In this document: one piece after another, positions 43,906 to 62,345 of the stretch
How the letters are laid out: each line of letters begins with the position of its first letter
Numbering within the stretch: the first letter of the stretch is position 1
Source of the DNA: Nocardioidaceae bacterium
Lineage (GTDB): Bacteria; Actinomycetota; Actinomycetes; Propionibacteriales; Nocardioidaceae
Direction of reading: 5' to 3'
Assembly: GCA_030447865.1 (NCBI GenBank)
Contig: JAUJOD010000004.1
Coordinates: forward strand, 240,074-304,073
Length of the DNA stretch: 64,000 nucleotides
Program-made: the position numbers and the translations under genes
The notes under the pieces: model-generated
What the model was told of the DNA's origin: nothing
Database searches by the model: none
The model's input: only the letters and a program-made list of their open reading frames with translations

Positions 43906-44011
43906 TGGTGGGCGATACTGGGTTCGAACCAGTGACCTCTTCGGTGTGAACGAAGCGCGCTAGTGACCTCTTCGGTGTGAACGAAGCGCGCTACCACTGC
44001 GCCAATCGCCC
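43906..44011 (-). tRNA. tRNA-Val(CAC) containing an internal perfect 31-bp tandem duplication (possibly non-functional or an assembly artefact)
   Basis: The minus strand reads GGGCGATTGGCGCAGTGGTAGCGCGCTTCGTTCACACCGAAGAGGTCACT[dup]GGTTCGAACCCAGTATCGCCCACCA. The duplicated unit agtgacctcttcggtgtgaacgaagcgcgct occurs at 43931-43961 and again at 43962-43992. Removing one copy gives a canonical 75-nt cloverleaf. Confidence 0.75.
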
Positions 44012-45707: not shown

Positions 45708-45780
45708 GCGGACGTGGCTCAGCTGGTAGAGCATCACCTTGCCAAGGTGAGGGTCGCGGGTTCGAATCCCGTCGTCCGCT
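45708..45780 (+). tRNA. tRNA-Gly(GCC)
   Basis: Acceptor GCGGACG/CGTCCGC, anticodon arm TCACC-TTGCCAA-GGTGA, T-loop GGTTCGAATCC. Confidence 0.9.
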
Positions 45781-45810
45781 CGGAGAGGGTCGCTGGCTTA
45801 CCCATCCAGT

Positions 45811-45881
45811 GGTGGAGTGGCCGAGAGGCGAGGCAACGGACTGCAAATCCGTCTACGAGGGTTCAAATCCCTTCTCCACCT
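45811..45881 (+). tRNA. tRNA-Cys(GCA)
   Basis: Acceptor GGTGGAG/CTCCACC, anticodon loop CTGCAAA, T-loop GGTTCAAATCC. Confidence 0.9.
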
Positions 45882-45900
45882 CGACGCGAGCATGTCCCGA

Positions 45901-45975
45901 GGGCGATTGGCGCAGCGGTAGCGCGCTTCCCTGACACGGAAGAGGTCACTGGTTCAAACCCAGTATCGCCCACCA
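45901..45975 (+). tRNA. tRNA-Val(GAC), CCA encoded
   Basis: Acceptor GGGCGAT/ATCGCCC, anticodon arm CTTCC-CTGACAC-GGAAG, T-loop GGTTCAAACCC, 3' ACCA. Confidence 0.9.
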
Positions 45976-46436
45976 GCAACACCGCAGTCAGAGGCACAAT
46001 GCGCCGTAAGAAACGGGTCGAGTGCCAGATACGTGCCAGATCGGTGACGGCCCCGCAGAGCCGCGACAGCGGCCACCGTCGAGAGGCGGCACCATGTCCA
46101 CATCCACCCGAGTCGAGCGCATCCCCATCAACACCGATGACGATGGCACCGAGGCGACGACGTACTACACCAACGACCCCGACCTGTTCTCAAGCTCCAA
46201 AAGGGCAAGGTCATCCGAAGCGGCGACGTGATGGGCACCGTTGATGGTCAAGTTGCGCATCGACGACAACCCAATCCATGAGGTGATCCTCGATGCTACC
46301 CAGGCGCTGGTAGCCCAGTGGGCGTCCTCGACCAGGCCATCGAGCAGATCACCATCGCCCGGGGCGCCTTGCTGCGGATACAGGACGGCGAGGACATCAA
46401 CCGGCCGAAGATGGCCGTCGAGAAGGGGGCGGACCC

Positions 46437-48719: not shown

Positions 48720-51470
48720 ATGACCCACGGGGACGATGCGCTGCGCCTGGCGGCGGAGCAGCGTGCCCGGGTGCTCATCGACAAGCAGCTCGTCGCCGCC
48801 GGCTGGGTGGTGCAGGACAAGAAGGACCTGAACCTGTTCGCCGCCCAGGGCGTCGCCGTACGGGAGTCGATCATGGCTCCGGGGCATGGCCGGGCTGACT
48901 ATCTGTTGTACGTCGACAAGTCGGCCGTCGGAGTCATCGAGGCCAAGCCGGAGGGCACTCCCCTGTCGGGTGTGGAGTGGCAGTCGGCGATGTACGCCGA
49001 GGGGCTCCCGTCCGACGTACGCCTAAAGGCGCTCACCGTCGACGGTCGGCTGCCGTTCGTTTTCGAGGCGTCGGGCACCGAGACCCACTTCACCAACGGC
49101 TACGACCCCGAGCCGCGAGCACGCAAGCTGTTCGCCTTCCCGAAGCCGGCCACGCTCGCTCGCATCGTGCGGGACGCGGAAGCCAATCCGGAGGCTCCCA
49201 CGTGGCGCGGGAAGGTACGCCACCTGCCCGAGCTGGACACCGCTCCGCTGCGGCCATCGCAGATCGACGCGATCACCGGCGTCGAACGGAGCCTGGCAGA
49301 GCAGCGCTTCAAGCGCAGCCTCGTGCAGATGGCGACCGGCGCGGGCAAGACGTACACCGCCGTCACGCAGTCCTACCGGCTCCTGCGGTACGGCGGCTTC
49401 AACCGGGTCCTGTTCCTGGTCGACCGTAACAACCTCGCCGACCAGACGCTGGCGGAGTTCCAGAACTACCGGGCACCGGGTGATGGGCGGCGGTTCACCG
49501 AGATCTACAACGTCGACAAGCTCAGCAGCGCAGGCATGCTCGGATCGTCCAATGTGGTGATCTCGACGATCCAGCGAGTCTTCAAGGTGCTGCGCAACGA
49601 GGACGTCACCACTGAGGACGATCCCGGTCTGGACGGGTTCGTGCCGGATGCGCCCGTGACCGTCACCTATAACCCCGACCTGCCGCCGGAGACGTTCGAC
49701 CTGGTGATCGTGGACGAGGCGCACCGCTCCATCTACGGCGTGTGGCGCGGCGTGCTCGACTACTTCGACGCCCACATCGTCGGCCTGACCGCGACGCCGG
49801 GGAAGCAGACGTTTGGGTTCTTCGAGCAGAACCTCGTCAGTGAGTACACCTACCCACAGTCGGTCGTCGACAACGTGAACGTCGACTTCGACCTCTACCG
49901 GATCCGCACCGAGATCAGCGAGCAGGGTTCGGTGATCGAGGCGGGGACGATCGTGCCGAAGGTCGATCGACGTACGCGCGCCGAACGGTTGGAGGCCCTG
50001 GACGAGGACCTCGAGTACATGCCCGGACAGCTTGACCGGGCGGTCACGAGCAAGTCGCAGATCCGCACCGTGCTGGAGACCTTCCGCGACCGGTTGTTCA
50101 CCGAGATCTTCTCCGGCCGCTCGACGGTGCCGAAGACGCTGATCTTCGCCAAGGACGACGCCCACGCCGAGGAGATCGTCACCACGGTCCGGGAGGTGTT
50201 CGGCAAGGGCAACGACTTCGCCGCCAAGATCACCTACAGCGCCCGCGACCCCAAGGGTCAGCTCCAGGCGTTCCGCACCAGCCCCACGCTGCGGATCGCG
50301 GTCACGGTCGACATGATCGCCACCGGTACCGACGTGAAGCCGCTGGAGTGCGTGTTCTTCATGCGCGACGTGCGGTCGGCGCAGTACTTCGAGCAGATGA
50401 AGGGCCGCGGCGCCCGCACCATCCCGCCCGCGGACTTCCAGGCTGTCACCCCTGACGCCGCCGCAAAGACCCGGTTCGTGATCGTGGACGCCGTCGGGGT
50501 CACCGAGCACGACTTCGTCGAGCCACCGCTCAACCGGGACAAGTCCGTCAGCTTGAAGAAGCTGCTCGACAAGGCGGCCGGCCTCACCCTCACCGACGAC
50601 GAGACCGCCACCCTTGCGTCCCGGCTGGCCAAGCTCGAGCTCGAGCTCACCGACCCCGAACGCACCGAGCTCGACACGGTGGCCGGCCAGCCGGTCCGCG
50701 ACGTCATCCGGGCGCTGGTGGAGGCCGTCGACCCCGAGGTGCAGGCCAAGTACGTCGAGGCTGGCGGCGACGTGCAGTCGCTCCTCGACCGCGCGGTCGA
50801 GCCGGTCGCCGCGAACCCCGACCTGCGCAACCGCATCCTCGAACTGCGCGCCACCCACGACCGCACCATCGACGAGGTCAACCGCGACACCCTGATCGGC
50901 GCCCACGGCGTCGTCGACACCAGCCGCGCCAAGAGCGTCGTGGAGTCATGGCGCGCCTACCTCGACGAACACCGCGCGGAGATCACCGCCATTCAGCTCC
51001 TCGCCGAAGCCCGTGACCGTCGGGTGTCGTTCCATGACATCCAAGAGCTCGCCGACCGCATCGCCCGGCCGCCGTACAACTGGACCCCTGACCTCATCTG
51101 GAACGCGTACGTCGCCATCGAGGCGCCGAACGTCCGGCGCAGCCCGGCTCACACCCTGACCGACCTGGTGTCGTTGGTCCGCTATACCGTCGGCGCGGAC
51201 GCCGAACTGGTTCCCTACGCCGACCTCGTCCGCGAGAGGTACGCCGCGTGGCTCGCCCAGCAGGAACAGGCAGGGGTCACGTTCACCGAAGCCGAGAGGT
51301 GGTGGCTCGACCGCATGGTCTCCGTGATCGCCTCCTCCGCCGGAATCAACGCCACCGACCTCGATGACGCCCCCTTCACCGAACGCGGCGGCACCGACGG
51401 GGCTCTCCGCGACCTTGGTGACCGCGCCGCGGACCTCATCGACGAACTCAACACGGAGCTCACCGCGTGA
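48720..51470 (+). CDS. hsdR: Type I restriction enzyme R subunit
   Basis: 916 aa. It has an N-terminal nuclease-like region (GRADYLLYVD...GVIEAKPEG) and SF2 helicase motifs (QMATGAGKTYTA, VIVDEAHRS, GLTATP). The C-terminal region is typical of HsdR. Confidence 0.9.
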   Translation: MTHGDDALRLAAEQRARVLIDKQLVAAGWVVQDKKDLNLFAAQGVAVRESIMAPGHGRADYLLYVDKSAVGVIEAKPEGTPLSGVEWQSAMYAEGLPSDVRLKALTVDGRLPFVFEASGTETHFTNGYDPEPRARKLFAFPKPATLARIVRDAEANPEAPTWRGKVRHLPELDTAPLRPSQIDAITGVERSLAEQRFKRSLVQMATGAGKTYTAVTQSYRLLRYGGFNRVLFLVDRNNLADQTLAEFQNYRAPGDGRRFTEIYNVDKLSSAGMLGSSNVVISTIQRVFKVLRNEDVTTEDDPGLDGFVPDAPVTVTYNPDLPPETFDLVIVDEAHRSIYGVWRGVLDYFDAHIVGLTATPGKQTFGFFEQNLVSEYTYPQSVVDNVNVDFDLYRIRTEISEQGSVIEAGTIVPKVDRRTRAERLEALDEDLEYMPGQLDRAVTSKSQIRTVLETFRDRLFTEIFSGRSTVPKTLIFAKDDAHAEEIVTTVREVFGKGNDFAAKITYSARDPKGQLQAFRTSPTLRIAVTVDMIATGTDVKPLECVFFMRDVRSAQYFEQMKGRGARTIPPADFQAVTPDAAAKTRFVIVDAVGVTEHDFVEPPLNRDKSVSLKKLLDKAAGLTLTDDETATLASRLAKLELELTDPERTELDTVAGQPVRDVIRALVEAVDPEVQAKYVEAGGDVQSLLDRAVEPVAANPDLRNRILELRATHDRTIDEVNRDTLIGAHGVVDTSRAKSVVESWRAYLDEHRAEITAIQLLAEARDRRVSFHDIQELADRIARPPYNWTPDLIWNAYVAIEAPNVRRSPAHTLTDLVSLVRYTVGADAELVPYADLVRERYAAWLAQQEQAGVTFTEAERWWLDRMVSVIASSAGINATDLDDAPFTERGGTDGALRDLGDRAADLIDELNTELTA

Positions 51471-52798
51471 TGACTCCCACAGGCTGGCAAGAAGCAATGC
51501 TTGGCGACGTGTGCCGGGTCGTTTCGGGTGCGACTCCCAAGACTGGCGTCGCGGACTACTGGGGCGGCGACATTCGCTGGATCACCCCGAACGACCTCTC
51601 GAAGGACCGCTCGCAGATACTCAGGGAAGGCGCGCGGAGCCTCACACGAGCCGGATACGACTCATGTAGCGCTCGCCTAGTCCCCTCCGGGTCGGTTGTG
51701 GTTAGCTCCCGCGCGCCCGTGGGATATGTCGCTATCGCTGGCGCCGAACTGTGCACTAACCAGGGCTGCAAGACAGCGATCCCGCCCGACTTCATCGATT
51801 CCAAATACCTTTACTGGTACCTCATCACGGCGAAGCCTGACCTCGAAGCACGGGCGAGCGGCACCACGTTCAAGGAGATTTCCGGCAAGCGATTCTCAGA
51901 GACACGATTGCGGTGGCCCGACCTGCATGAGCAGCGCCGCATCGTCGACCTCCTCGAAGACCACCTCTCCCGACTCGACGCCGCCCGCAGCTACCTGGCC
52001 ACCGCCGACCGCCGCGCTGGACTCCTCTGGGCAGCGGGCCTCTCCGATCTCACCCTTCCGCCGGCAGCCCAGGAACTTATGAAGGCTGACCCAGCGGTGC
52101 TTGGCCACGACTCGCCACCGGCGGCCAAGCTCCCGGCTGGCTGGCGGTGGGCGCGTTGGGCAGACCTTGGAACCAGTGAGAATGGCAAGCCCTTTTCCAG
52201 TGGGGACTATCAAGACACCGGCCTTCGGCTGCTGCGCCCCGGCAATCTGGGCCCCAAGGGCGTTCTGACCTGGCGTGATGCCAACACCCGTTTCATGCCG
52301 AACTCCTACCGTTCGTCGCACCCCACGAGCATGCTTCAGCCTGGTGATCTCGTGATGAACCTGACTGCGCAATCGCTCAAGGACGACTTCCTCGGCCGCG
52401 TCTGCCTTGTACGCAAGGGTGACGAGTCGCTCCTGAATCAGCGGATCGCGCGGCTCCGCTCGACGGGGGTGGACAGTGGTTTCGCTCTAGCCGTATTTCG
52501 CTCCCGGCTCTTCCGGCACTACGTGAAGTCGTTGAGCACGGGCAGCCTGATCCAGCACATGTTCACGAGCCAGCTGGATCGATTCTGGATTCCAGTCCCG
52601 CCAGCAACCGAGCAGCAACGAATCGCCCGAGCCGCTGACATCTTGCAGGCTGATATTGCACGACAAGTCGAGGTGATCCGCCTGCAGGGCCAACGCTCGG
52701 CGCTGCTTCGCCGCTCGATCCTCGCTGCCGCGTTCTCCGGGCGCCTCACTGGCAGCGCCAGTGGCTTGTCGGTGGCTGAGGAGATGATCGGCGCGTGA
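51467..52798 (+). CDS. hsdS: Type I restriction enzyme specificity subunit
   Basis: 443 aa with two target-recognition-domain halves separated by coiled-coil conserved regions (EQRRIVDLLEDHLSRLD and EQQRIARAADILQADI). It has an ATGA overlap with hsdR. Confidence 0.9.
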   Translation: MMTPTGWQEAMLGDVCRVVSGATPKTGVADYWGGDIRWITPNDLSKDRSQILREGARSLTRAGYDSCSARLVPSGSVVVSSRAPVGYVAIAGAELCTNQGCKTAIPPDFIDSKYLYWYLITAKPDLEARASGTTFKEISGKRFSETRLRWPDLHEQRRIVDLLEDHLSRLDAARSYLATADRRAGLLWAAGLSDLTLPPAAQELMKADPAVLGHDSPPAAKLPAGWRWARWADLGTSENGKPFSSGDYQDTGLRLLRPGNLGPKGVLTWRDANTRFMPNSYRSSHPTSMLQPGDLVMNLTAQSLKDDFLGRVCLVRKGDESLLNQRIARLRSTGVDSGFALAVFRSRLFRHYVKSLSTGSLIQHMFTSQLDRFWIPVPPATEQQRIARAADILQADIARQVEVIRLQGQRSALLRRSILAAAFSGRLTGSASGLSVAEEMIGA

Positions 52799-53705
52799 GT
52801 GGCAAGCAGATCAAGTTGTTCCTGGTCGACGGCACTCCTGGTGGGCTGACGACGGCCGAGATGACGACCGCTTGGACTGGTCATGTTCTCGCGGCGTCGC
52901 GGTCGGACCTTGGCGATCTCCGCGGCGTCCCGAAGCCCAGCGGACCGGCGTCTACCTCTTGCTCGGCCCTGACCAGGGTGCCGTCGGCGATACCGTGTGC
53001 TACGTGGGTGAGGCGGATGTCGTGGCCGACCGGATTCGCTCCCACCATCGGGAGAGGGACTTCTGGACCCGGGTCGTGGTCATCACGTCGAAGGACACCA
53101 ACCTCACCAAGTCGCACGGCCGCTATCTGGAGTCACGACTGATAACGCTCGCCGCCCAGGCGGGCCGCGTCACGTTGGAGAACGGGACGGCACCTCCCGT
53201 CCACGGACTGCCGGAGGCCGACCGGTCTGACATGGACTACTTCGTGTCCCAACTGCAGATCGTCCTGCCGGTCCTCGGCGTCGACGCGTTCCGCGTCCGG
53301 GCGTCAGAGCTGCCGTCGCCGAGTGAGCCGGCCGCTGACGCATCCCCCGTCTTCCGGCTCCAGGACGCGAGTGCGAACGCGAACGCGTTGGCCCAGCAGG
53401 TCGACGGCGAGTTCATCGTACTCAAAGACTCGCAGGTGATCCCCCGGTGGCCAGACGAGAAGGAGTCGCATAGCCCAAGCACCCGCAAGGCGTACGCGTC
53501 GTACCGCGCCCAGCATCAGGGCTACCTCGACGACGGCTCTATCGTGCTCGAGAACGGGGTCGCCCGCGTATCCCGCGACGTCGTATTCAGCTCACCGTCA
53601 GCCGCCGGGGCGGTCCTCGTCGGCCGCGCCTGCAACGGACGCAAGGAATGGGTCGCACCCGACGGCACCGCCTTCGCCCAGTGGGAGAGCCGAGGGGTCG
53701 AGTGA
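52795..53705 (+). pseudogene. GIY-YIG-like / DUF4357 family protein, frameshifted near 52918-52925
   Basis: Frame 1 reads MSGKQIKLFLVDGTPGGLTTAEM...SRSDLGDL. Another frame continues RRPEAQRTGVYLLLGPDQ...YVGEADVVADRIRSHH...NLTKSHGRYLESRLI...LPEADRSDM and the C-terminal ...FSSPSAAGAVLVGRACNGRKEW. Together these match a family often found beside R-M genes (family name from memory). Confidence 0.7.
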
Positions 53706-53821
53706 CGGACGCCCGCCGCTTCTGTCGGCGGTGCCCACCACGATGAGTCTGTCGGGTTCGGGACCAGGGCGTGCCTGGACTGCCAAACTGGAGGCTCGGC
53801 AAGCAGACGGAGGTGAGCGCC

Positions 53822-54679
53822 ATGACCGGTGACCTTGAACTGCGTCTTGTAGGTTCCCCGAGTCCTAGGGGTCAGATCCGGGCGCGAGATCTCGCCGTGC
53901 TCGCCGACGCCCTGCAGGAGTTGCGGCTCCGGATCGGTCGCGAGCTCATCAAGACGGCCGGACGGGGCCGCACCAGGCAATACATGGAGGAGCTCACGGA
54001 AATCAGGCTGAGCCGCATCTCACCCGGGAGCACGGTCCTCACCTTCACCCAAGGCCCCACTGACAAGCTCGACGCCATCCTGAGCGAAGAGAAGCTCCTG
54101 GCAGAGCGCTTCCGCGAGATCGTCGAAGCCATCGGCCGCGATGAGCGCCCCGACTGGGCGACCGACCTCATCGCCGAGAGCGCCGCTCGGCTCGTCGACG
54201 GGCTCAGGTCCGCTGCTCCGCAGGTAGTCGTTCGCTCCGGTTCTGGCACCGAGGTCACCATCGAGACCGACCACATCCACCGAGAGACCTGGACTAGAGG
54301 TCGTATCCAAACCTCCGACCTCGTGACTGCGAAGGGGCGGCTGGAGCGTGTCGACCTGCGCACTCACGAGTTCAGGCTGCGCGACGACGTCGGCAACGCG
54401 GTCGACCTCCGTCACGTTGAGAGCGACACCGTGTCCGGCAAGCTGGTCGGGCAGTGGGTCGCTGCAACGGGTCGCGCAACTATCAACGCGGCCGGACTAT
54501 TCGTTGCCCTGGAGGACGCGAGAGTAGAGGAGGTCGAGGATCCCGCGGCACCCTATGTGGACCGTGCCCTCGTCACGATCCAATCGATCTTGGCTAGCGC
54601 ACCGGGTCCCGACCCCGCGGGAGCAATCGACCTCGATGACGAGGAACTGGCTGCTTTCCTGCGGGCGGCTACTTCGTGA
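53822..54679 (+). CDS. orphan 285-aa protein upstream of and translationally coupled to a PIN nuclease
   Basis: ATG 53822 lies 8 nt after GGAGG (53809-53813). Its stop overlaps the PIN gene's GTG start (GTGA). I recognise no motif. The helical N-terminal half is followed by a beta-rich middle (GRLERVDLRTHEFRLRDDVGNAVDL) and an acidic C-terminal helix IDLDDEELAAFLRAA. Confidence 0.65.
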   Translation: MTGDLELRLVGSPSPRGQIRARDLAVLADALQELRLRIGRELIKTAGRGRTRQYMEELTEIRLSRISPGSTVLTFTQGPTDKLDAILSEEKLLAERFREIVEAIGRDERPDWATDLIAESAARLVDGLRSAAPQVVVRSGSGTEVTIETDHIHRETWTRGRIQTSDLVTAKGRLERVDLRTHEFRLRDDVGNAVDLRHVESDTVSGKLVGQWVAATGRATINAAGLFVALEDARVEEVEDPAAPYVDRALVTIQSILASAPGPDPAGAIDLDDEELAAFLRAATS

Positions 54680-55098
54680 CCTACGTGGATGCGGTGCTCC
54701 TCGACACGGATGTCTTCAGCCTTCTGTTCGTCGCTAGGGAGGCCCAGGACTCACGCATCGCAGGCTGGCGGGAGCGGCTCGGCGGGAGACGGGTCCTGAT
54801 CGCGTTCCAGACGCGAGCCGAGATCCTGGAAGGAGCGCTTGAACGCAGTTGGGGAGAGCGCCGTATGGCGAACACGCGACGCACACTCGACCACACACCG
54901 ACCGTGCCTCCGGACGATGAGGTGATCGACGCTTACGCAACGCTGACCGCAGCTTGCCGCAAGAACGGCCACGCGCTGCAGGACGGTCGGCATGTTGCGG
55001 ACCGCTGGATCGCCGCGTGCGCGATCGCCAAAGGCCTTCCGCTGTTGTCCGGAGACGACATGTATCGAAACGCTCCAAACCTCGACCTGCTGAACTGA
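54676..55098 (+). CDS. PIN-domain ribonuclease (VapC-like)
   Basis: 140 aa. Acidic residues are spaced as in a PIN domain: LLDTDVF (D), ...RAEILEG (E), ADRWIAACA (D), LLSGDDM (D). Confidence 0.8.
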   Translation: MTYVDAVLLDTDVFSLLFVAREAQDSRIAGWRERLGGRRVLIAFQTRAEILEGALERSWGERRMANTRRTLDHTPTVPPDDEVIDAYATLTAACRKNGHALQDGRHVADRWIAACAIAKGLPLLSGDDMYRNAPNLDLLN

Positions 55099-55116: not shown

Positions 55117-56595
55117 GTGTCCGACTCCCGCCGTCTTGTCGACAAGTTGTGGTCGTACTGCAACGTGCTGCGCGACGATGGCGTGGGCGTCATCGAGTAC
55201 ACCGAGCAGCTCACCTACCTGCTGTTCCTGAAGATGGCGCACGAGCGCGCCACCCGGAAGTTGAACCCCCAGCAGATCGTCCCGGCCGAGTACTCCTGGC
55301 AGCGGCTGCTCGACGCCGAGGGCACCGCACTGGAGGTCGAGTACACCAAGATCCTCGTCGGTCTGGCGCAGCAACCCGGGACGCTCGGCACGATCTTCCG
55401 CAAAGCGCAGAACCGCATCCAGGACCCTGCCAAGCTCAAGCGGCTCATCGTCGACCTGATCGACCAGGAGAACTGGTCCGCTTCAGGCATCGACCTCAAG
55501 GGCGACGCCTACGAGGAGCTGCTCTCGAAAGGCGCCTCGGACAAGGGATCGGGTGCGGGGCAGTACTTCACCCCTCGTGACCTAATCGCCGGCATCGTCG
55601 AGGTAATCGACCCGCAACCCAGCGACACAGTGGTTGACCCGGCGTGCGGCACCGGCGGCTTCCTGCTCGTCGCGCATGAGCACGCAGCACGGAACGCCGA
55701 GAACCTCACGCCCACTGAGCGCGCACACCTGCGCGACGAGTTCGCGTCCGGCTACGAGCTGGTCGACGGCACCGCCCGACTGGCGGCCATGAACCTACTG
55801 CTGCACGGGATCGGCACGCCGGACGGCGACTCACTTATCGAGGTACGCGACGCCCTGATCGCCGACCCGGGGCAACGCTGGTCCGTCGTACTCTCCAACC
55901 CGCCGTTCGGCCGCAAGTCCTCCCTGACGATGGTCGGCGCCGATGGCCGCGAGGTGCGCGAGGACCGCGAGATCGAGCGCCATGACTTTGTCGTCACCAC
56001 GAGCAACAAGCAGCTCAACTTCGTCCAGCACATCATGACGATCCTCGACATCAACGGCCGCGCCGCCGTCGTACTCCCCGATAACGTGCTGTTCGAGGGA
56101 GGCGCCGGCGAGAAGAAGCTGCTGGCCGACTTCGACCTGCACACGATGCTGCGCCTGCCGACCGGCGTCTTCTACGCCCAAGGCGTGAAGGCCAACGTGC
56201 TGTTCTTCGACAAGAAGCCCGCCGCCGAGCAGCCGTGGACCCAACGACTGTGGGTCTACGACCTGCGCACCAACCAGCACTTCACGCTCAAGCAGAACTC
56301 GCTGCGCCGCCACCACCTCGACGACTTCGTCGCGTCCTACTTGCCCGGCAAGGACCGCTCCGAGCGGGTCGAGTCCGAGCGGTGGAAGTCGTTCACGTAC
56401 GACGAGCTGATCGCCCGCGACAAGGCCAACCTGGACATCACCTGGCTGCGGGACGGGTCGCTCGAGGACGCCGACAACCTGCCCGCGCCCGAGATCATCG
56501 CCCGCGAGATCGTTGAGGACCTCACCGCGGCCCTCGCCGAGTTCGAGGCAGTCGCATCCGCCTTGGAGGCGCAGCAGCTGGGTGCCGAACACTGA
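55117..56595 (+). CDS. hsdM: Type I restriction enzyme M subunit (N6-adenine DNA methyltransferase)
   Basis: 492 aa. It has the HsdM N-terminal domain (LWSYCNVLRDDG...EYTEQLTYLLFLKM), the AdoMet motif VVDPACGTGGFL and the catalytic NPPFG. Confidence 0.95.
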   Translation: MSDSRRLVDKLWSYCNVLRDDGVGVIEYTEQLTYLLFLKMAHERATRKLNPQQIVPAEYSWQRLLDAEGTALEVEYTKILVGLAQQPGTLGTIFRKAQNRIQDPAKLKRLIVDLIDQENWSASGIDLKGDAYEELLSKGASDKGSGAGQYFTPRDLIAGIVEVIDPQPSDTVVDPACGTGGFLLVAHEHAARNAENLTPTERAHLRDEFASGYELVDGTARLAAMNLLLHGIGTPDGDSLIEVRDALIADPGQRWSVVLSNPPFGRKSSLTMVGADGREVREDREIERHDFVVTTSNKQLNFVQHIMTILDINGRAAVVLPDNVLFEGGAGEKKLLADFDLHTMLRLPTGVFYAQGVKANVLFFDKKPAAEQPWTQRLWVYDLRTNQHFTLKQNSLRRHHLDDFVASYLPGKDRSERVESERWKSFTYDELIARDKANLDITWLRDGSLEDADNLPAPEIIAREIVEDLTAALAEFEAVASALEAQQLGAEH

Positions 56596-56849: not shown

Positions 56850-58298
56850 TCACATGTAGTGCGCGTACCTCCCCGAAACCGGTGAGTTCTCGTCGTGGTG
56901 GCGCAGGATGTCCCCTACCGTTCGAGCGGTACGAAGTGTGATGGGGATGCGGCCGTCGAGGCGGGTCTGGTTCCAATTCATCTTCGTCAGCGCCAGCACT
57001 TCGGTCGCGAGCTCTTCGGGACTCGATTCGACGTCGATGTTGCGGATGCCGAGCGGCTGCGGTACGTAGTGCCCGGGGTAGGTCTTATAGAACGGGATTG
57101 CGCCGCTCGTGTAGATGATGTGCCGGTTCTCGCCCAGGCTCAGCAACGTGCCGCGCAGAGGCGGCTGCTGACCCTTGCGGTACAGGCGCACGTGGTCGGA
57201 GTTGGTGAGCCACAGCAGCTCAAGGACGTCGAGTCGTTCGTTGTTCGCTGCCTGCTTGAACCCGGCGATTTCAGCAGCCGTGTAGTTACTCGCCTTGTGC
57301 ATCACGATGCGGGCGGGACTGTTGCGGTGCTCGGTGCGGTACCGCTGAAGCGCGGTCTCCAGGACTTCCCGAGCATCTTCTTCTGAAAGGTGGGGCTGAA
57401 GGTCTTCTTTGGAGATGGTCGCCGGTCCGCCACGCACAATGATGCCGTCGCCACGCTGGTTGTAGACCTGGGCGACGCTCGTGTGCAGCGACTGCTCATT
57501 CGTACGGTAGAACGCGATGCCGACATAGCACGACGTCAGGTCAGCGGGGTCCCGGGTCAGACGCCAAGGGACGCCGCCATTCTTGTAGTACAGCGCCGTG
57601 TGCAGGTTCCACGCACGAGTGGCCTCGTCCTGGTTCGCACCGAGCCGGTTCGTGTGGGGCTCCTTGAACGTCGGGTCCCACGTGGACCGGCGCACAATCT
57701 GGATAGGCTGCTTGTACTTCAACGACTTCGCTTTCAGCAGCGCGTGGAAGTCAGCGACCAGTTGGGTGCCGTTGCTCGCGTTCGACCCGTCCGCCTCCGG
57801 CTCGTCGGTGGCCGCAACACGAGTCAGCGCTGCGTCGTTTAGGTTGTCGGGCCGGCACACGATGACGACATCGCACGACGCCTCGTCGTGGAGTGCTTCG
57901 AGTTCGCGGTCGTACAGCTCGACCGCCTTTGCGACCGCGGTCAGCGGATTGAGTCCGTCGAGCTGCTCGAGGTCGCGTTTGTTAATTGCCCGGGTCAGGC
58001 GCGGACTGAAGTTGATGATGGACCGAAACCCGTGATGGACGTCGAACCCCGGGAACGGGACATACAAATGGGTGAGGTGGGTGTCAGCGTAGGCGCCGAT
58101 ACCGCGGCGGCACCGGTCCAGCCAGGTCTGAAGACCCTCGGTCGACGACTTCGGACCGATGATGGCGGCACGGACCACCCGCGGGGTCGGATCCTTTACG
58201 TCGGCCGGCCCATAGTCGGCGATGCCGTGCCGAGGGTCGATGTGACGGCCGCCGCCGGCGAACTCCAACAGCGGCTCCTCAAGCACCATGGCCTTCAC
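56850..58298 (-). CDS. short prokaryotic Argonaute (MID-PIWI only)
   Basis: 482 aa. The PIWI-like core is WNLHTALYYKNGGVPWRL...CYVGIAFYR...RIVMHKAS, and the MID-like segment is LKAKSLKYKQPIQIV. There is no N/PAZ-length N-terminus. The GTG start overlaps the upstream stop (GTGA); an alternative ATG is at 58289. Confidence 0.8.
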   Translation of the reverse strand: MKAMVLEEPLLEFAGGGRHIDPRHGIADYGPADVKDPTPRVVRAAIIGPKSSTEGLQTWLDRCRRGIGAYADTHLTHLYVPFPGFDVHHGFRSIINFSPRLTRAINKRDLEQLDGLNPLTAVAKAVELYDRELEALHDEASCDVVIVCRPDNLNDAALTRVAATDEPEADGSNASNGTQLVADFHALLKAKSLKYKQPIQIVRRSTWDPTFKEPHTNRLGANQDEATRAWNLHTALYYKNGGVPWRLTRDPADLTSCYVGIAFYRTNEQSLHTSVAQVYNQRGDGIIVRGGPATISKEDLQPHLSEEDAREVLETALQRYRTEHRNSPARIVMHKASNYTAAEIAGFKQAANNERLDVLELLWLTNSDHVRLYRKGQQPPLRGTLLSLGENRHIIYTSGAIPFYKTYPGHYVPQPLGIRNIDVESSPEELATEVLALTKMNWNQTRLDGRIPITLRTARTVGDILRHHDENSPVSGRYAHYM

Positions 58299-59698
58299 AG
58301 GTCTTTCCCTTCGTCCCAGTCCGCCGCGCCGGTGAAGAGCAGACCGTCCAGGTCATCCTCGCTATCACCGTCGTCCACGTCCACCACGGCCGCCTCGCCC
58401 GGGTCCTCGCCGATGTCGACGCCCTTCGGCGGCACCCAGTTCTTATCGGTGATGCCCCGGTCGACGTCGAACTTCGCCAACGGGCCGAAGTCCAAGATCC
58501 GCTGAGGTGGCGTGTAGAACAGGTCAGGCTCGGTCTCGCCCTGCAGGAAACTGGCCCACATCAACGTTTCGCCCAGGCGGGCGGCGTTCCTTTCGATGCG
58601 CTTCATCTTCGCGAGGTTCTTATCCGCAAACGCGAACTCCTTGTACCCGTCGTCGCTGTAGAAGTAGTCGGGCAGGATCTCGCAGAACCAGTCGTCCCCC
58701 AGCCGTGAAAAGTGGGAACGCAACGCCGCGTGACGGTAGTATTGCGGCCGCGTTGGGTCATCCTTGTGCTTGTAGTAGCCCTTGAACACCAGCCGCTCAC
58801 GTCCGGTCGTGGACACGATGCGCCGCTCCGTCAGGTCCTCCGTCGGCCAAAAGTGAAGCAACTTTCGATCGTTGTTCCACCTGCAATCTGCTCGGAGGTC
58901 GTGCTGCAGCGCCGCGTTCAGCAGACGCACCGCAAGCCGCTCGCTGTCCGGGCCACCGGCCGTCAGCTCACCGAACGAGACCGGATTGCCGGCTGAGTCC
59001 GGCACCATCGCCAATGCCGTTCCCGGCGTTGGGTTCCACGCGTAGATCCGACCAGCCCAGAGCACGAAGTCCGACCGGACCTCGTGCTTAGTCTTGCGCT
59101 GTACCGCGTACACCGACTTAGGCGAGGTATGGCTCGTCCGGGCGCTGTAGACCACGTCCGGGACGTCGACCTCAAGCAGGTTAGAAATCAGCCGCTCGTT
59201 CTTCCGCTCGGCGACCCGAGTGTGCGCGACCCCGTGCGGATCAGCGATAGCGAACAGCTTCCCGGAGATGTCACCGACCAGCTCCTGGGTGGCCTTGTTG
59301 AAGTCCACACGCCGGGACGCACGGTTCGACGCGTTCTCGAACCACGGCTGGACGTGCACCCACCACGCCTTGCGCTCAGCCGGGTGCGAGCAGATGAGGA
59401 TGACCGGGATGTTCGACGACATCCAGTAGTCGACATCGGCGTCCTCGCACAGGTACCAGAACTTGTCGTCGTCCTCACCAGAGAACTTTCGGTCGCTGGC
59501 CTTGGACTGAACCAGGATGTGCCGGTTGCTCATGTGCCCGGTCGCCGGGTCGCGCAACTCGATGCTGCCGTCAATGCCCGCATCGACCCGGCGGTCATGC
59601 CAGACGTGCCCCATCTCGTAGACGAGCATGCTGATGAGTCCGATACCGCCATCGCCCTTGAGCTGGCTATCGGTTAGTTGCTTCGGCCCTCGACCCAC
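58295..59698 (-). CDS. DUF4365 (DREN / Mrr-like PD-(D/E)xK nuclease)-APAZ protein, partner of short pAgo
   Basis: 467 aa. The N-terminal ...HDRRVDAGIDGSIELRD...HILVQSKAS is a D...E.(x)..K nuclease-type motif. The remaining ~300 aa are of a size and position consistent with an APAZ domain. It sits immediately upstream of and overlapping the pAgo gene. Confidence 0.7.
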   Translation of the reverse strand: MGRGPKQLTDSQLKGDGGIGLISMLVYEMGHVWHDRRVDAGIDGSIELRDPATGHMSNRHILVQSKASDRKFSGEDDDKFWYLCEDADVDYWMSSNIPVILICSHPAERKAWWVHVQPWFENASNRASRRVDFNKATQELVGDISGKLFAIADPHGVAHTRVAERKNERLISNLLEVDVPDVVYSARTSHTSPKSVYAVQRKTKHEVRSDFVLWAGRIYAWNPTPGTALAMVPDSAGNPVSFGELTAGGPDSERLAVRLLNAALQHDLRADCRWNNDRKLLHFWPTEDLTERRIVSTTGRERLVFKGYYKHKDDPTRPQYYRHAALRSHFSRLGDDWFCEILPDYFYSDDGYKEFAFADKNLAKMKRIERNAARLGETLMWASFLQGETEPDLFYTPPQRILDFGPLAKFDVDRGITDKNWVPPKGVDIGEDPGEAAVVDVDDGDSEDDLDGLLFTGAADWDEGKDL

Positions 59699-59824
59699 AC
59701 CCTCACCTCAACGCAAACGGTTCTGCCCGGACTCAGAGCCTAAGGAGAAGGTCCGACAGTTCCGCGGACCTCGGCAGTCCGCACGCCACTTCCGCGAGTC
59801 CAAGGCACAGGCGGCTCGAGGACG

Positions 59825-60310
59825 TCAGCCCTGCGCAAGGAACTCGTCCAGGCCGAAGTCGGAGTACCTGGTCGAGAACGCCGGCCTTGCGGACGCGGCA
59901 CTACGGGCGGACTTCGCCGAGCGGGCCGACTTGGCGCTCTTCGCAGGCGAGGCCGACACAGCGAACGGTGTCCGCCCTGGCTCGAAGCCGCACCGGCGAC
60001 CAGCAAGGACGCGGGAGCGGTCTTCTAGTCGCCCAGACGCCCTGATCTGCGATATGAGCGGTGCGCCATTCCGCTGCATCCGCGCTAATGAAGCCGGCGA
60101 GCAGCTGCGCCAATGGGCGGCTTGCGCCGTTGCTGCCCTTGACCGCCCAGATTCGCTGCGGCCACGCCCCCCGAGGTGCTTGCGCATCGCGGCGTAACCA
60201 GTCTTGTCCGTGCCGAACCGACCGGTCGCCTGCACCGTCTCGCGGTGGTCGACGACCTCGATGGTTACCGACAATTTGTGGGGATCGACCCCGATGAACA
60301 CCTTCGCCAA
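59825..60310 (-). mobile_element. IS110-family transposase remnant (N-terminal DEDD domain fragment, frameshifted and truncated)
   Basis: MAKVFIGVDPHKLSVTIEVVDHRETVQATGRFGTDKTGYAAMRKHL is followed in another frame by WPQRIWAVKGSNGASRPLAQ. No C-terminal transposase domain was found. Confidence 0.7.
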
Positions 60311-60737
60311 AGCACTCGCCGCGCCCTCCGTCGTGGACCTACAGGGATCGTGAGGCGGGCATTGCTGCTAGAAGCTGGGCAGTCCCCTCTGGAGCCGCGC
60401 CCCGCCACGGCACCCGGCGGCAACGCACACCGATAGAGAGCCACACCCGCAGGCGGGGTGGGCAGCCGCGAGGAGAGCGTCCCCGCCGAGCGCCTGGACC
60501 GAGTCTGGCCCGACGCCGGTCCTAACGGAATCATCTAGTAGCCCAGAGAGACGCAGGATTGCGAGCTGCGACAGCAGCGGTCTCCCGGCCAGGTGGACCA
60601 AAATGTCGGAACGGCCGGCCACGATTGCGGTGTGCTCAGCCCGCGGGCCAACAACCCGCTTCGTGTACTGCGGCGCGCTCGATAGCGTTGCAGTGCGCTC
60701 TCGGGCCGGGAGCGACCACGACCACCCCAGGACCAAG

Positions 60738-62345
60738 ATGCGTCTCACCAGGATCAAGATTGAGAACCACAGCAGGTTGACGAACACAGCTATCACGGTG
60801 CGCGAACACCTGATTCTCGTTGGTCCCAACGACGTTGGGAAGTCCTCGGTCCTGCGTTGCCTGGACTTCCTCCTCGGCGCCAGCACCGCCCAGCTCTACA
60901 ACCGGATCACGGTCGAGGACTTCGCCGACGCGACCCAACCGCTCGTGTTCGAGGCCGCACTGGAGGACTTGAGCACGAACGACCAGGCGCTGTTCCCCGA
61001 CGAGGCGACCGTCGACCCGACTACTAGCGCGGTGACGCTCACGGTTCGCCTCACCGCCACGGTAGACGCCAACGGGACCCTCGGGATCGACCGGAGCGCC
61101 CCATACTCGGGCACCAACCGGCAGCTGTCCCGCGATCAGCTCGAAGCGCTCGGCTGGACCCTGCTGGGTGCCACGGCGATGGCCCGAGACCTGCGCGAGG
61201 ACCGGCGGAGCGCGCTGACCGAAATTCTGCAGCGCGTCGACCTGGGCACCGAGAAGGCCGGTTTCGACGCCCTGACCGAGCAGATCCAGAAGGAGTTGAA
61301 GAATTCCACCGTCATGGAGGGTCTCCGCGACGACCTCGCCGGGCAGCTGTCGAAGGCGCTGCCGATCGGGATCGGGAAGGACCAACTGGAGTTCGTCACC
61401 GCCGCGATGGCCGTCGGCGACGTTCTCGCCGACGTGCGGCTGCGCGTCGACCGTGACGGCACCGTCAAGGACATCACCGAGCAGTCCGACGGTCTCCGCG
61501 CCCTGTTCGCGCTCGCCCTGTACGACCTGGTGAGCGTTGGCGCCAACATGGTCGCGGTCGACGAGCCCGAAGTGCACCTGCACCCGACCAGTCAGCGAAG
61601 CCTCGCGCAGTTGCTGAAAAACGGCCCGAACCAAAGGCTGATCGCCACCCACTCCCCGGACATTGTCAGCGCGTTCTCCCCGGACTCGATCGTGTCCGTC
61701 CGCGCCGGCGGTGTGCTGGTGCAGCCGAGGGAAGGGTTCCTGACCGACGACGAGAAGATGGTCGTGCACTGGTGGGTGCGGGACAAGCTCGAGCCGCTGA
61801 CCGCGAACCGGGTACTGGCCGTCGAGGGCGTCTCGGACCGAATCATCGTCGAGCACGCCGCCGACCTGACCGACCGAAACCTCGACCGCCGCGGCGTCTC
61901 GATCGTGGAGACCGACGGCGCCGGCGACATGGGCGCCATCATCAAGCTGTTCGGGCCAGACGGGTTCAACGTCCCCATGACCCTGCTCATCGACGAGGAC
62001 GCCCGCAACAACACCGCCACGAAGCTCGGCGTGCCGCCGGCCGACATCGAGAAGCACGGCACGTTCGTATCCGCCCCCGATCTCGAAGCCGAGTACGTCG
62101 CGACGCTCGGGGCCGCCGCGACTTGGGTCGCGCTGCAGTCCTCGGGTCTGTTCACGCCGAATCAGCTCGCCAATTGCGCGACCAACGGCCCCGGTGGCAC
62201 GCCGAGCGAGGCAGACCTGGTCTGCTTCATCAAGCCGAAGCACAAGGTTCGCGCGGCGATGGCCGTCGCGAAGGTCCTCGACGAGCCGACCGCCCGGAAG
62301 ATCAAGAGCGTTGACAGCGTCCTGACCGAGATTTCGGGCAAGTGA
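60738..62345 (+). CDS. gajA: OLD-family ATP-dependent endonuclease (GajA-like)
   Basis: Start set at ATG 60738 (MRLTRIKIENHSRL). It has Walker A GPNDVGKSS, the segment SDGLRALFALAL...VAVDEPEVHLHP, and TOPRIM motifs (LAVEGVSDRIIVE, LLIDEDAR). Confidence 0.85.
   Translation: MRLTRIKIENHSRLTNTAITVREHLILVGPNDVGKSSVLRCLDFLLGASTAQLYNRITVEDFADATQPLVFEAALEDLSTNDQALFPDEATVDPTTSAVTLTVRLTATVDANGTLGIDRSAPYSGTNRQLSRDQLEALGWTLLGATAMARDLREDRRSALTEILQRVDLGTEKAGFDALTEQIQKELKNSTVMEGLRDDLAGQLSKALPIGIGKDQLEFVTAAMAVGDVLADVRLRVDRDGTVKDITEQSDGLRALFALALYDLVSVGANMVAVDEPEVHLHPTSQRSLAQLLKNGPNQRLIATHSPDIVSAFSPDSIVSVRAGGVLVQPREGFLTDDEKMVVHWWVRDKLEPLTANRVLAVEGVSDRIIVEHAADLTDRNLDRRGVSIVETDGAGDMGAIIKLFGPDGFNVPMTLLIDEDARNNTATKLGVPPADIEKHGTFVSAPDLEAEYVATLGAAATWVALQSSGLFTPNQLANCATNGPGGTPSEADLVCFIKPKHKVRAAMAVAKVLDEPTARKIKSVDSVLTEISGK

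Follow-up and report, generated by a model that had tools for sequence, protein, structure and literature searches.

We analyzed a 64,000-nt stretch of contig JAUJOD010000004.1 (hereafter, the window) and found that two overlapping genes on its minus strand, at positions 56850 to 59698, very probably encode a functional SPARDA (DNase-associated short prokaryotic Argonaute), an anti-plasmid and anti-phage defence system. We put the probability of this reading at about 0.9. The upstream gene encodes a DREN-APAZ protein and the downstream gene a short prokaryotic Argonaute (pAgo). The family assignment is based on profile matches in Pfam and PADLOC and on full-length matches of both proteins to chains in the PDB, all well beyond chance level, and the combination of a short pAgo with a DREN-APAZ partner would place the operon in the SPARDA class, APAZ clade S2B. 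That the system is functional is suggested by the conservation of catalytic and pocket residues, of an acidic tail and of the coupled operon, by low ratios of nonsynonymous to synonymous substitution rates (dN/dS), by an independent intact copy and by a defence-island setting, together with the known biochemistry of its closest characterised relative, TmuRE-Ago. An earlier, sequence-only reading of this DNA had proposed an operon of this class, with two overlapping open reading frames (ORFs) of 467 and 482 amino acids (aa). Both ORFs were recovered exactly, joined by a 4-bp GTGA overlap, and solved SPARDA complexes (9jsb, 9qbl/9qbp/9qbq) can be aligned with both proteins over their whole length.

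The product of the first gene had been described as a DUF4365 nuclease followed by an APAZ region, and both parts were found. Residues 6-425 match the PADLOC model Aga_REase-PNTD1-PNTD2 (E=4.8e-133), and residues 6-431 align to the solved chain 9jsb_D (1.4e-42) as well as to 9qbp_A and 9qbq_A. Besides the Pfam DUF4365 profile at the N-terminus, APAZ was recognised through the PNTD1-PNTD2 part of the REase-APAZ, SIR2-APAZ (1e-18) and SIR2-kinase-APAZ models of PADLOC, with residues ~157-390 forming the stretch that matches the APAZ part of the SIR2-APAZ models. Residues 166-422 also match the DREN-less chain 9qbl_A (5.7e-17). Neither TIR nor SIR2, the N-terminal domains of the SPARTA and SPARSA partners, was matched in the Pfam search, and a search of NCBIfam gave no meaningful match for the DREN-APAZ protein or the pAgo.

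The motifs DAGIDGSIEL and VQSKAS, which the sequence-only reading had singled out as PD-(D/E)xK-like, lie at residues 39-48 and 63-68. They hold the putative DREN active-site residues D39, D43, Q64 and K66 (and E47), of which the first four align with the experimentally mutated positions E37/D41/Q60/K62 of Nba, E37/D41/Q62/K64 of Xau and Q62/K64 of Tmu (residues tested by experiment are all four in Xau, D41/Q60/K62 in Nba, and both in Tmu). The change from E to D at the 'E37' position is common to all actinobacterial orthologs, including the active Tmu enzyme. Acidic C-terminal tails like the one found here are present in all actinobacterial DREN-APAZ orthologs compared. In apo XauSPARDA, DREN is kept locked by the negatively charged Ct-tail, which fills the guide/target groove, and the same has been predicted for Nba.

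The second gene product was recovered as a short pAgo consisting of MID and PIWI only, without N, L1, PAZ and L2, as had been claimed. It matches the PADLOC model pAgo_I over all 455 model positions (1-455; 3.7e-167), and its residues 2-481 align to residues 4-481 of the SPARDA Ago 9qbl_B, which also has 482 aa (1.2e-89). Other structure matches include 9qbp_B (3e-87) and 9jsb_A (1.1e-78). The Pfam Piwi profile is matched with E=7.9e-7 and 29.1 bits, just above the cut-off of 28.9. The ranking of structural matches points in the same direction: SPARDA Agos match at 1e-79 to 1e-90, SPARTA Agos at 1e-32 to 1e-37 and the 8in8 Ago at 1e-22, and structures of long pAgos match only residues ~218-397 (4e-4 to 6e-3). 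A long pAgo (long-A or long-B; N-L1-PAZ-L2, ~650-800 aa) was ruled out because a protein of 482 aa has no room for N and PAZ domains.

The MID pocket was mapped onto Nba R183/K187/K240, which have been tested by experiment, and onto Xau N179/Q222/N230, where N179 contacts the guide base g1A and Q222 and N230 contact g2U. The corresponding residues here include D183, H185, K189, Q223, N231 and K239, and the motif YYKNGGVPWRL, which the sequence-only reading had assigned to the PIWI-like core, occupies residues 237-247. K189, Q223, N231 and K239 are invariant in 116 homologs. The aspartate D183 stands at the position of Xau N179 and is shared with Tmu and with 105 of the 116 homologs; H185 replaces the arginine of the RK motif. 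With the H/R-K...Q...K set present, the pocket appears competent for binding the 5'-end of a guide.

In hAgo2, the catalytic tetrad lies in the motifs GAD, YRDG and YAH. Alignment of the motifs GIA, HKAS and TAR with these hAgo2 motifs, which are general knowledge, places A262, A336 and R459 at tetrad positions 1, 3 and 4. The residues at D1 and D3 are non-acidic (T/A/S/G) in this pAgo and in all 116 homologs, in agreement with the expectation that the tetrad is absent, and at the C-terminus the alignment stays in register with the solved Agos of Xau and Nba. The PIWI domain is thus predicted to lack the DEDX tetrad and to be slicer-dead, a call based on positions 1, 3 and 4. Coordinates of these and neighbouring features are collected below.

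Table 1. Features of the SPARDA operon and of its surroundings in the window (positions are those of the window)
Feature	Position	Strand	Description	Evidence
DREN-APAZ gene	58295..59698	-	467 aa, GTG start	mechanical ORF list
Short pAgo gene, MID-PIWI	56850..58298	-	482 aa, GTG start	mechanical ORF list
GTGA stop/start overlap	58295..58298	-	4 bp, junction of the two genes	read from sequence
Possible Shine-Dalgarno-like element, GAGGTGAGG	59701..59709	-	5' of the DREN-APAZ GTG	read directly from sequence
DREN (DUF4365, PD-(D/E)xK) nuclease domain	59285..59647	-	aa 18-138	Pfam PF14280, E=2.1e-24
APAZ domain	58424..59230	-	aa ~157-425	PADLOC and PDB matches
Acidic C-terminal tail of DREN-APAZ	58298..58423	-	aa 426-467	16 D/E, 1 K/R
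MID 5'-end/guide-binding pocket, HK-type	57582..57752	-	aa 183-239	D183, H185, K189, Q223, N231, K239
PIWI domain, predicted catalytically inactive	56853..57551	-	aa ~250-482	tetrad positions A262, A336, R459
hsdR	48720-51470	+	Type I restriction-modification (R-M)	
hsdS	51467-52798	+	Type I R-M	
PDC-S14/DUF4357	52872-53705	+	embedded between hsdS and hsdM	PADLOC 1.1e-93
302-aa protein	53771-54679	+	embedded in Type I R-M operon	no family match
PIN-domain protein	54676-55098	+	embedded in Type I R-M; overlaps the 302-aa gene	
hsdM	55117-56595	+	Type I R-M; SPARDA operon convergent with it	
GajA (Gabija)	60603-62345	+	divergent from SPARDA	PADLOC PDLC00075, 5.8e-233
GajB (Gabija)	62342 to beyond 64000	+	runs past the window end	PADLOC PDLC00121, 1.3e-220
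IS110-family transposase N-terminal fragment	60170..60310	-	~47 aa; flanks SPARDA, not part of the system	

The DREN-APAZ gene lies upstream of the pAgo gene, on the same strand and directly adjoining it, and this effector-then-pAgo arrangement, with its 4-bp coupling, is kept in the ten related loci compared (L001-L010). The first gene ends in ...CTG TGA, and the GTG of the second shares three of these bases, giving the GTGA by which the two genes are translationally coupled. The junction is also GTGA in L001-L003 and is ATGA in L004 and L005, and a 4-bp overlap is present in the gene calls of Tmu and L009. Moreover, the coupled operon is retained with DREN-APAZ orthologs in genomes of Kribbella, Nocardioides and Dactylosporangium. 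The sequence GAGGTGAGG upstream of the DREN-APAZ GTG could serve as a Shine-Dalgarno-like element.

The public NCBI gene calls, on a 307-kb contig, are shorter, with the pAgo starting from ATG M4 (479 aa) and the DREN-APAZ protein from M24 (444 aa), so that the stretches 58287-58298 and 59627-59698 on the minus strand are affected. The upstream GTG of the DREN-APAZ gene looks correct, since orthologs conserve the 23 N-terminal residues cut by the NCBI start, and these residues can be aligned to the solved PDB chains. For both genes, the upstream GTG is the start better supported by alignment to homologs and PDB chains, and its use would give back 23 conserved N-terminal residues to the DREN-APAZ protein and three to the pAgo.

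The closest characterised system is TmuRE-Ago, the DUF4365-APAZ and short pAgo pair of Thermocrispum municipale (Lu et al., NAR 2023, PMC10810196), with 57% identity for the pAgo and 44-46% for the DREN-APAZ protein. TmuRE-Ago acts as a non-specific DNase that is guided by RNA and activated by DNA, with a preference for 5'-OH guides and a need for a 5'-U (PMC10810196). Like the operon in the window, it is an actinobacterial two-gene operon with a 4-bp overlap, and it has the block DAGIDGxIEL...VQSKASD including the D at 'E37', a D at the g1 contact corresponding to D183, and an acidic C-tail. The Tmu pAgo differs in having R (RK-type) where H185 is found here and D at tetrad position 4 where R459 is found here, and the Tmu DREN-APAZ protein has 451 aa compared with 467 aa here, where the tail is longer. 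The neighbours differ as well, with PDC-S28 in T. municipale and Gabija and Type I R-M in the window. At the T. municipale locus (L007:3852-8899), the genes that come after the Tmu operon encode an 866-aa PDC-S28/DinG-like helicase (PADLOC 8.3e-69) and a protein of 777 aa without family match. Therefore, the reference Tmu system also lies in a defence-gene neighbourhood.

The proteobacterial XauSPARDA and EaeSPARDA, with structures 9qbl, 9qbq, 9qcc and 9qbp (Jurgelaitis et al. 2025), share with the window's system the pAgo alignment over its full length, a DREN-APAZ match of about 1e-40, the catalytic D/Q/K, the g2U-contacting Q and N, the MID lysines and the acidic Ct-tail. They differ in their hosts and in a pAgo identity of only ~37%, and Xau has N179, R181 and E37 where D183, H185 and D39 are found here. 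NbaSPARDA and CmeSPARDA (Prostova et al. 2023/24; PDB 9jsb and related entries) have the same architecture, the catalytic D41/Q60/K62, and MID K187 and K240 corresponding to K189 and K239, with identities of 32-34% for the pAgo and 28% for DREN-APAZ and with H in place of Nba R183, the mutated arginine of the RK motif. SPARTA (TIR-APAZ), SPARSA (SIR2-APAZ) and SPARHA (HNH-APAZ) likewise combine a short MID-PIWI pAgo with an APAZ effector that is activated by guide/target binding and oligomerisation, and the APAZ region here cross-matches SIR2-APAZ models. However, their effectors are NADases or an HNH nuclease instead of DREN, and their pAgos are far more distant.

At E<=1e-10, the pAgo has more than 1600 protein matches. 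Among the top 120, every named protein belongs to Actinomycetota, and the genera represented there include Nocardia, Nocardioides, Microbacterium, Actinoplanes, Micromonospora, Lentzea, Blastococcus and Thermocrispum. Comparison with three orthologs gave dN/dS values of 0.06-0.14 for the pAgo and 0.11-0.20 for the DREN-APAZ protein; both genes are under strong purifying selection. In addition, a metagenome contig from an independent sequencing run (L010, SRR24765286) carries the operon intact and 100% identical. Among pAgos with at least 70% identity to the query, a subclade of 19 sequences, the combination D183/H185/R459 is found in 18, compared with D183/R185/D459 in the Tmu-like majority. 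The HK-type members come from relatives of Nocardioides, Kribbella and Nocardia.

On the model of Tmu, Nba, Cme, Xau and Eae, the DREN-APAZ protein and the pAgo would form a 1:1 heterodimer, in whose resting state the acidic tail would occupy the nucleic-acid groove and keep DREN locked. The pAgo would take up small RNA guides derived from abundant transcripts, and pairing of the guide with complementary single-stranded DNA of a plasmid or phage would displace the tail. A shift of the PIWI 'beta-relay' would then lead to filament assembly, in which DREN domains would come together as active tetramers and cut DNA indiscriminately in a Mg2+/Mn2+-dependent manner. The cell would be killed or arrested, and spread of the invader would be stopped by abortive infection. 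The guide 5'-end preference of the pAgo is uncertain: the g2U contacts Q223 and N231 are conserved, and the g1 contact D183 is that of Tmu and not the N of the 5'-P-AU-specific Xau and Nba.

Several points weigh against assigning function to the operon. The functional status of both proteins is judged from sequence and homologs, and the residue mapping spans the nuclease site, pocket, tail and tetrad. Identity to characterised SPARDAs is only moderate (57%/44-46% to Tmu; 32-37% for the pAgo towards Xau/Nba and 28% for the DREN-APAZ protein towards Nba), and the MID residue R183 mutated in Nba is a histidine here; HK is a known subtype of short pAgos, in SPARDA a putative one. In a sister contig (L008, SRR24860172), also metagenomic and 99.85% identical, 1 bp is deleted at window position 57991 and the pAgo reading frame is shifted, which could reflect an error of sequencing or genuine decay in a sister strain. 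Finally, the promoter scan around the operon, which used the sigma-70 consensus and is uninformative for actinobacteria, gave 0 promoters, and the terminator scan there gave predictions at chance level with none recognisable. The frameshift and the lack of a recognisable promoter, together with the insertion-sequence fragment in the upstream region, could be taken to indicate a decaying or silent relic, intact by chance and unexpressed or non-functional in its host. We consider this very unlikely, as neither ORF is truncated, no key residue is missing, the dN/dS values span 0.06-0.20, the L010 copy is intact, and the GC content at third codon positions (GC3, 81-84%) is host-like.

A different question is what the system does when it is active. 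Before 2023, nuclease-APAZ partners were hypothesised to be substitute slicers, and DREN would in that case cut only guide-matched DNA instead of acting collaterally. Since non-target DNA is degraded by all of TmuRE-Ago, Nba, Cme, Xau and Eae, with barely any cutting of the target itself, this is hardly credible here. A possible, if unlikely, alternative retains the SPARDA architecture and the collateral DNase output and changes the input, with a D183/H185/R459 subclade that follows a guide 5'-end or first-nucleotide rule unlike those of Nba/Xau and Tmu, or that uses DNA guides. D183 in place of the adenine-contacting Xau N179, H185 instead of the RK arginine in nearly the whole subclade, and the guide preference of Tmu, by which actinobacterial SPARDAs already differ from proteobacterial ones, all speak for it. 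On the other hand, HK and RK are both canonical 5'-P-binding MID motifs of short pAgos (PMC6299218), the four pocket residues K189, Q223, N231 and K239 do not vary, and RNA guides with DNA targets are used by all five characterised SPARDAs. A functional SPARDA with the established RNA-guided, DNA-activated collateral activity is preferred. We think it rather doubtful, though conceivable, that the guide 5'-end and first-nucleotide needs of the HK subclade differ from both 5'-P-AU (Nba/Xau) and 5'-OH/5'-U (Tmu). If they did, SPARDA-based detection of nucleic acids would gain a third programmable specificity from the subclade. This candidate alternative guide specificity for diagnostics is the only lead of some value offered by the operon.

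Apart from that, the operon is an ordinary new ortholog in a family of more than 1600 members with a solved mechanism. The sequence-only reading had called the class 'described only recently', which overstates its novelty: SPARDAs are known biochemically (2023-24) and structurally as filaments (2025-26), and the actinobacterial TmuRE-Ago was characterised in 2023 (PMC10810196). The value of the present assignment is mainly one of annotation, as two genes without a product name in the searched collections can now be labelled as a probable SPARDA abortive-infection system.

With a Type I R-M system on one side and Gabija on the other, the operon is part of a defence island found downstream of a tRNA-Gly/Cys/Val cluster at 45708-45975. 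The island is compact and comprises the Type I R-M genes, the genes embedded among them, SPARDA and Gabija. The 302-aa protein and the PIN protein within the R-M operon may form a toxin-antitoxin-like pair. The Gabija system looks complete, and the true start of GajA is probably M46, near 60738. A Gabija likewise divergent from SPARDA was found at L009, a locus with an 86%-identical SPARDA. Gabija-SPARDA as a conserved module was nevertheless rejected: only the window and L009 among the ten loci have this pair, and the two Gabijas, with ~25% identity, fall into separate PADLOC subfamilies. The adjacency is thus treated as defence-island clustering. Judged by the ThrS encoded in the window, which has a 100%-identical NCBI entry and whose nearest named relatives are metagenome-assembled genomes of Nocardioidaceae at 77-79%, the host is an uncultured Nocardioidaceae-like actinobacterium, in line with the actinobacterial origin given by the sequence-only reading.

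That reading had also described the operon as AT-richer than the backbone, flanked by an IS110 remnant and consistent with horizontal acquisition. Its sampled GC content of 55-57% is wrong, the measured value being 63.4%, with only 11% of 60-nt lines at or below 57%. Nonetheless, no stretch of this size in the window has a lower GC content than the operon (0.3rd percentile; 68.2% in the backbone at 1-37 kb), and AT-richness as such holds. With regard to the remnant, the first ~47 aa of the ORF at 59825..60310 (minus strand) resemble two proteins encoded on plasmids of Nocardioides and Nocardia, an annotated transposase and a transposase of the IS110 family (tblastn E=2e-9 and 3e-6); the ORF has no Pfam match, and its remainder is not transposase-like. 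Horizontal acquisition fits the defence-island context but loses the support of the GC figures, and the IS fragment is tiny. The two independent metagenome contigs, L008 and L010, both break off at window position 60272, within the IS110-like fragment, pointing to a repeat boundary there.

Some observations concern the tRNA genes. In both the window and Nocardioides vastitatis, the distance from SPARDA to the same tRNA-Cys/Val cluster (45811-45996 in the window, L002:18739-18928 in N. vastitatis) is within about 6-11 kb. Synteny between the two was rejected, as the match is confined to the tRNA genes and extends to none of the flanking proteins, and a shared insertion site therefore cannot be claimed. 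The proximity could be due to a recurrent tRNA-adjacent island hotspot or to coincidence. The tRNA-Val(CAC) at 43909-44011 on the minus strand has a perfect 31-nt tandem duplication (agcgcgcttcgttcacaccgaagaggtcact, present twice) across its anticodon arm. It scores 60 bits with an insertion in Rfam and is missed by ARAGORN, and the N. vastitatis ortholog (L002:21180-21251) is a normal 72-nt tRNA. Either this tRNA gene is disrupted or the duplication is an artefact of assembly.

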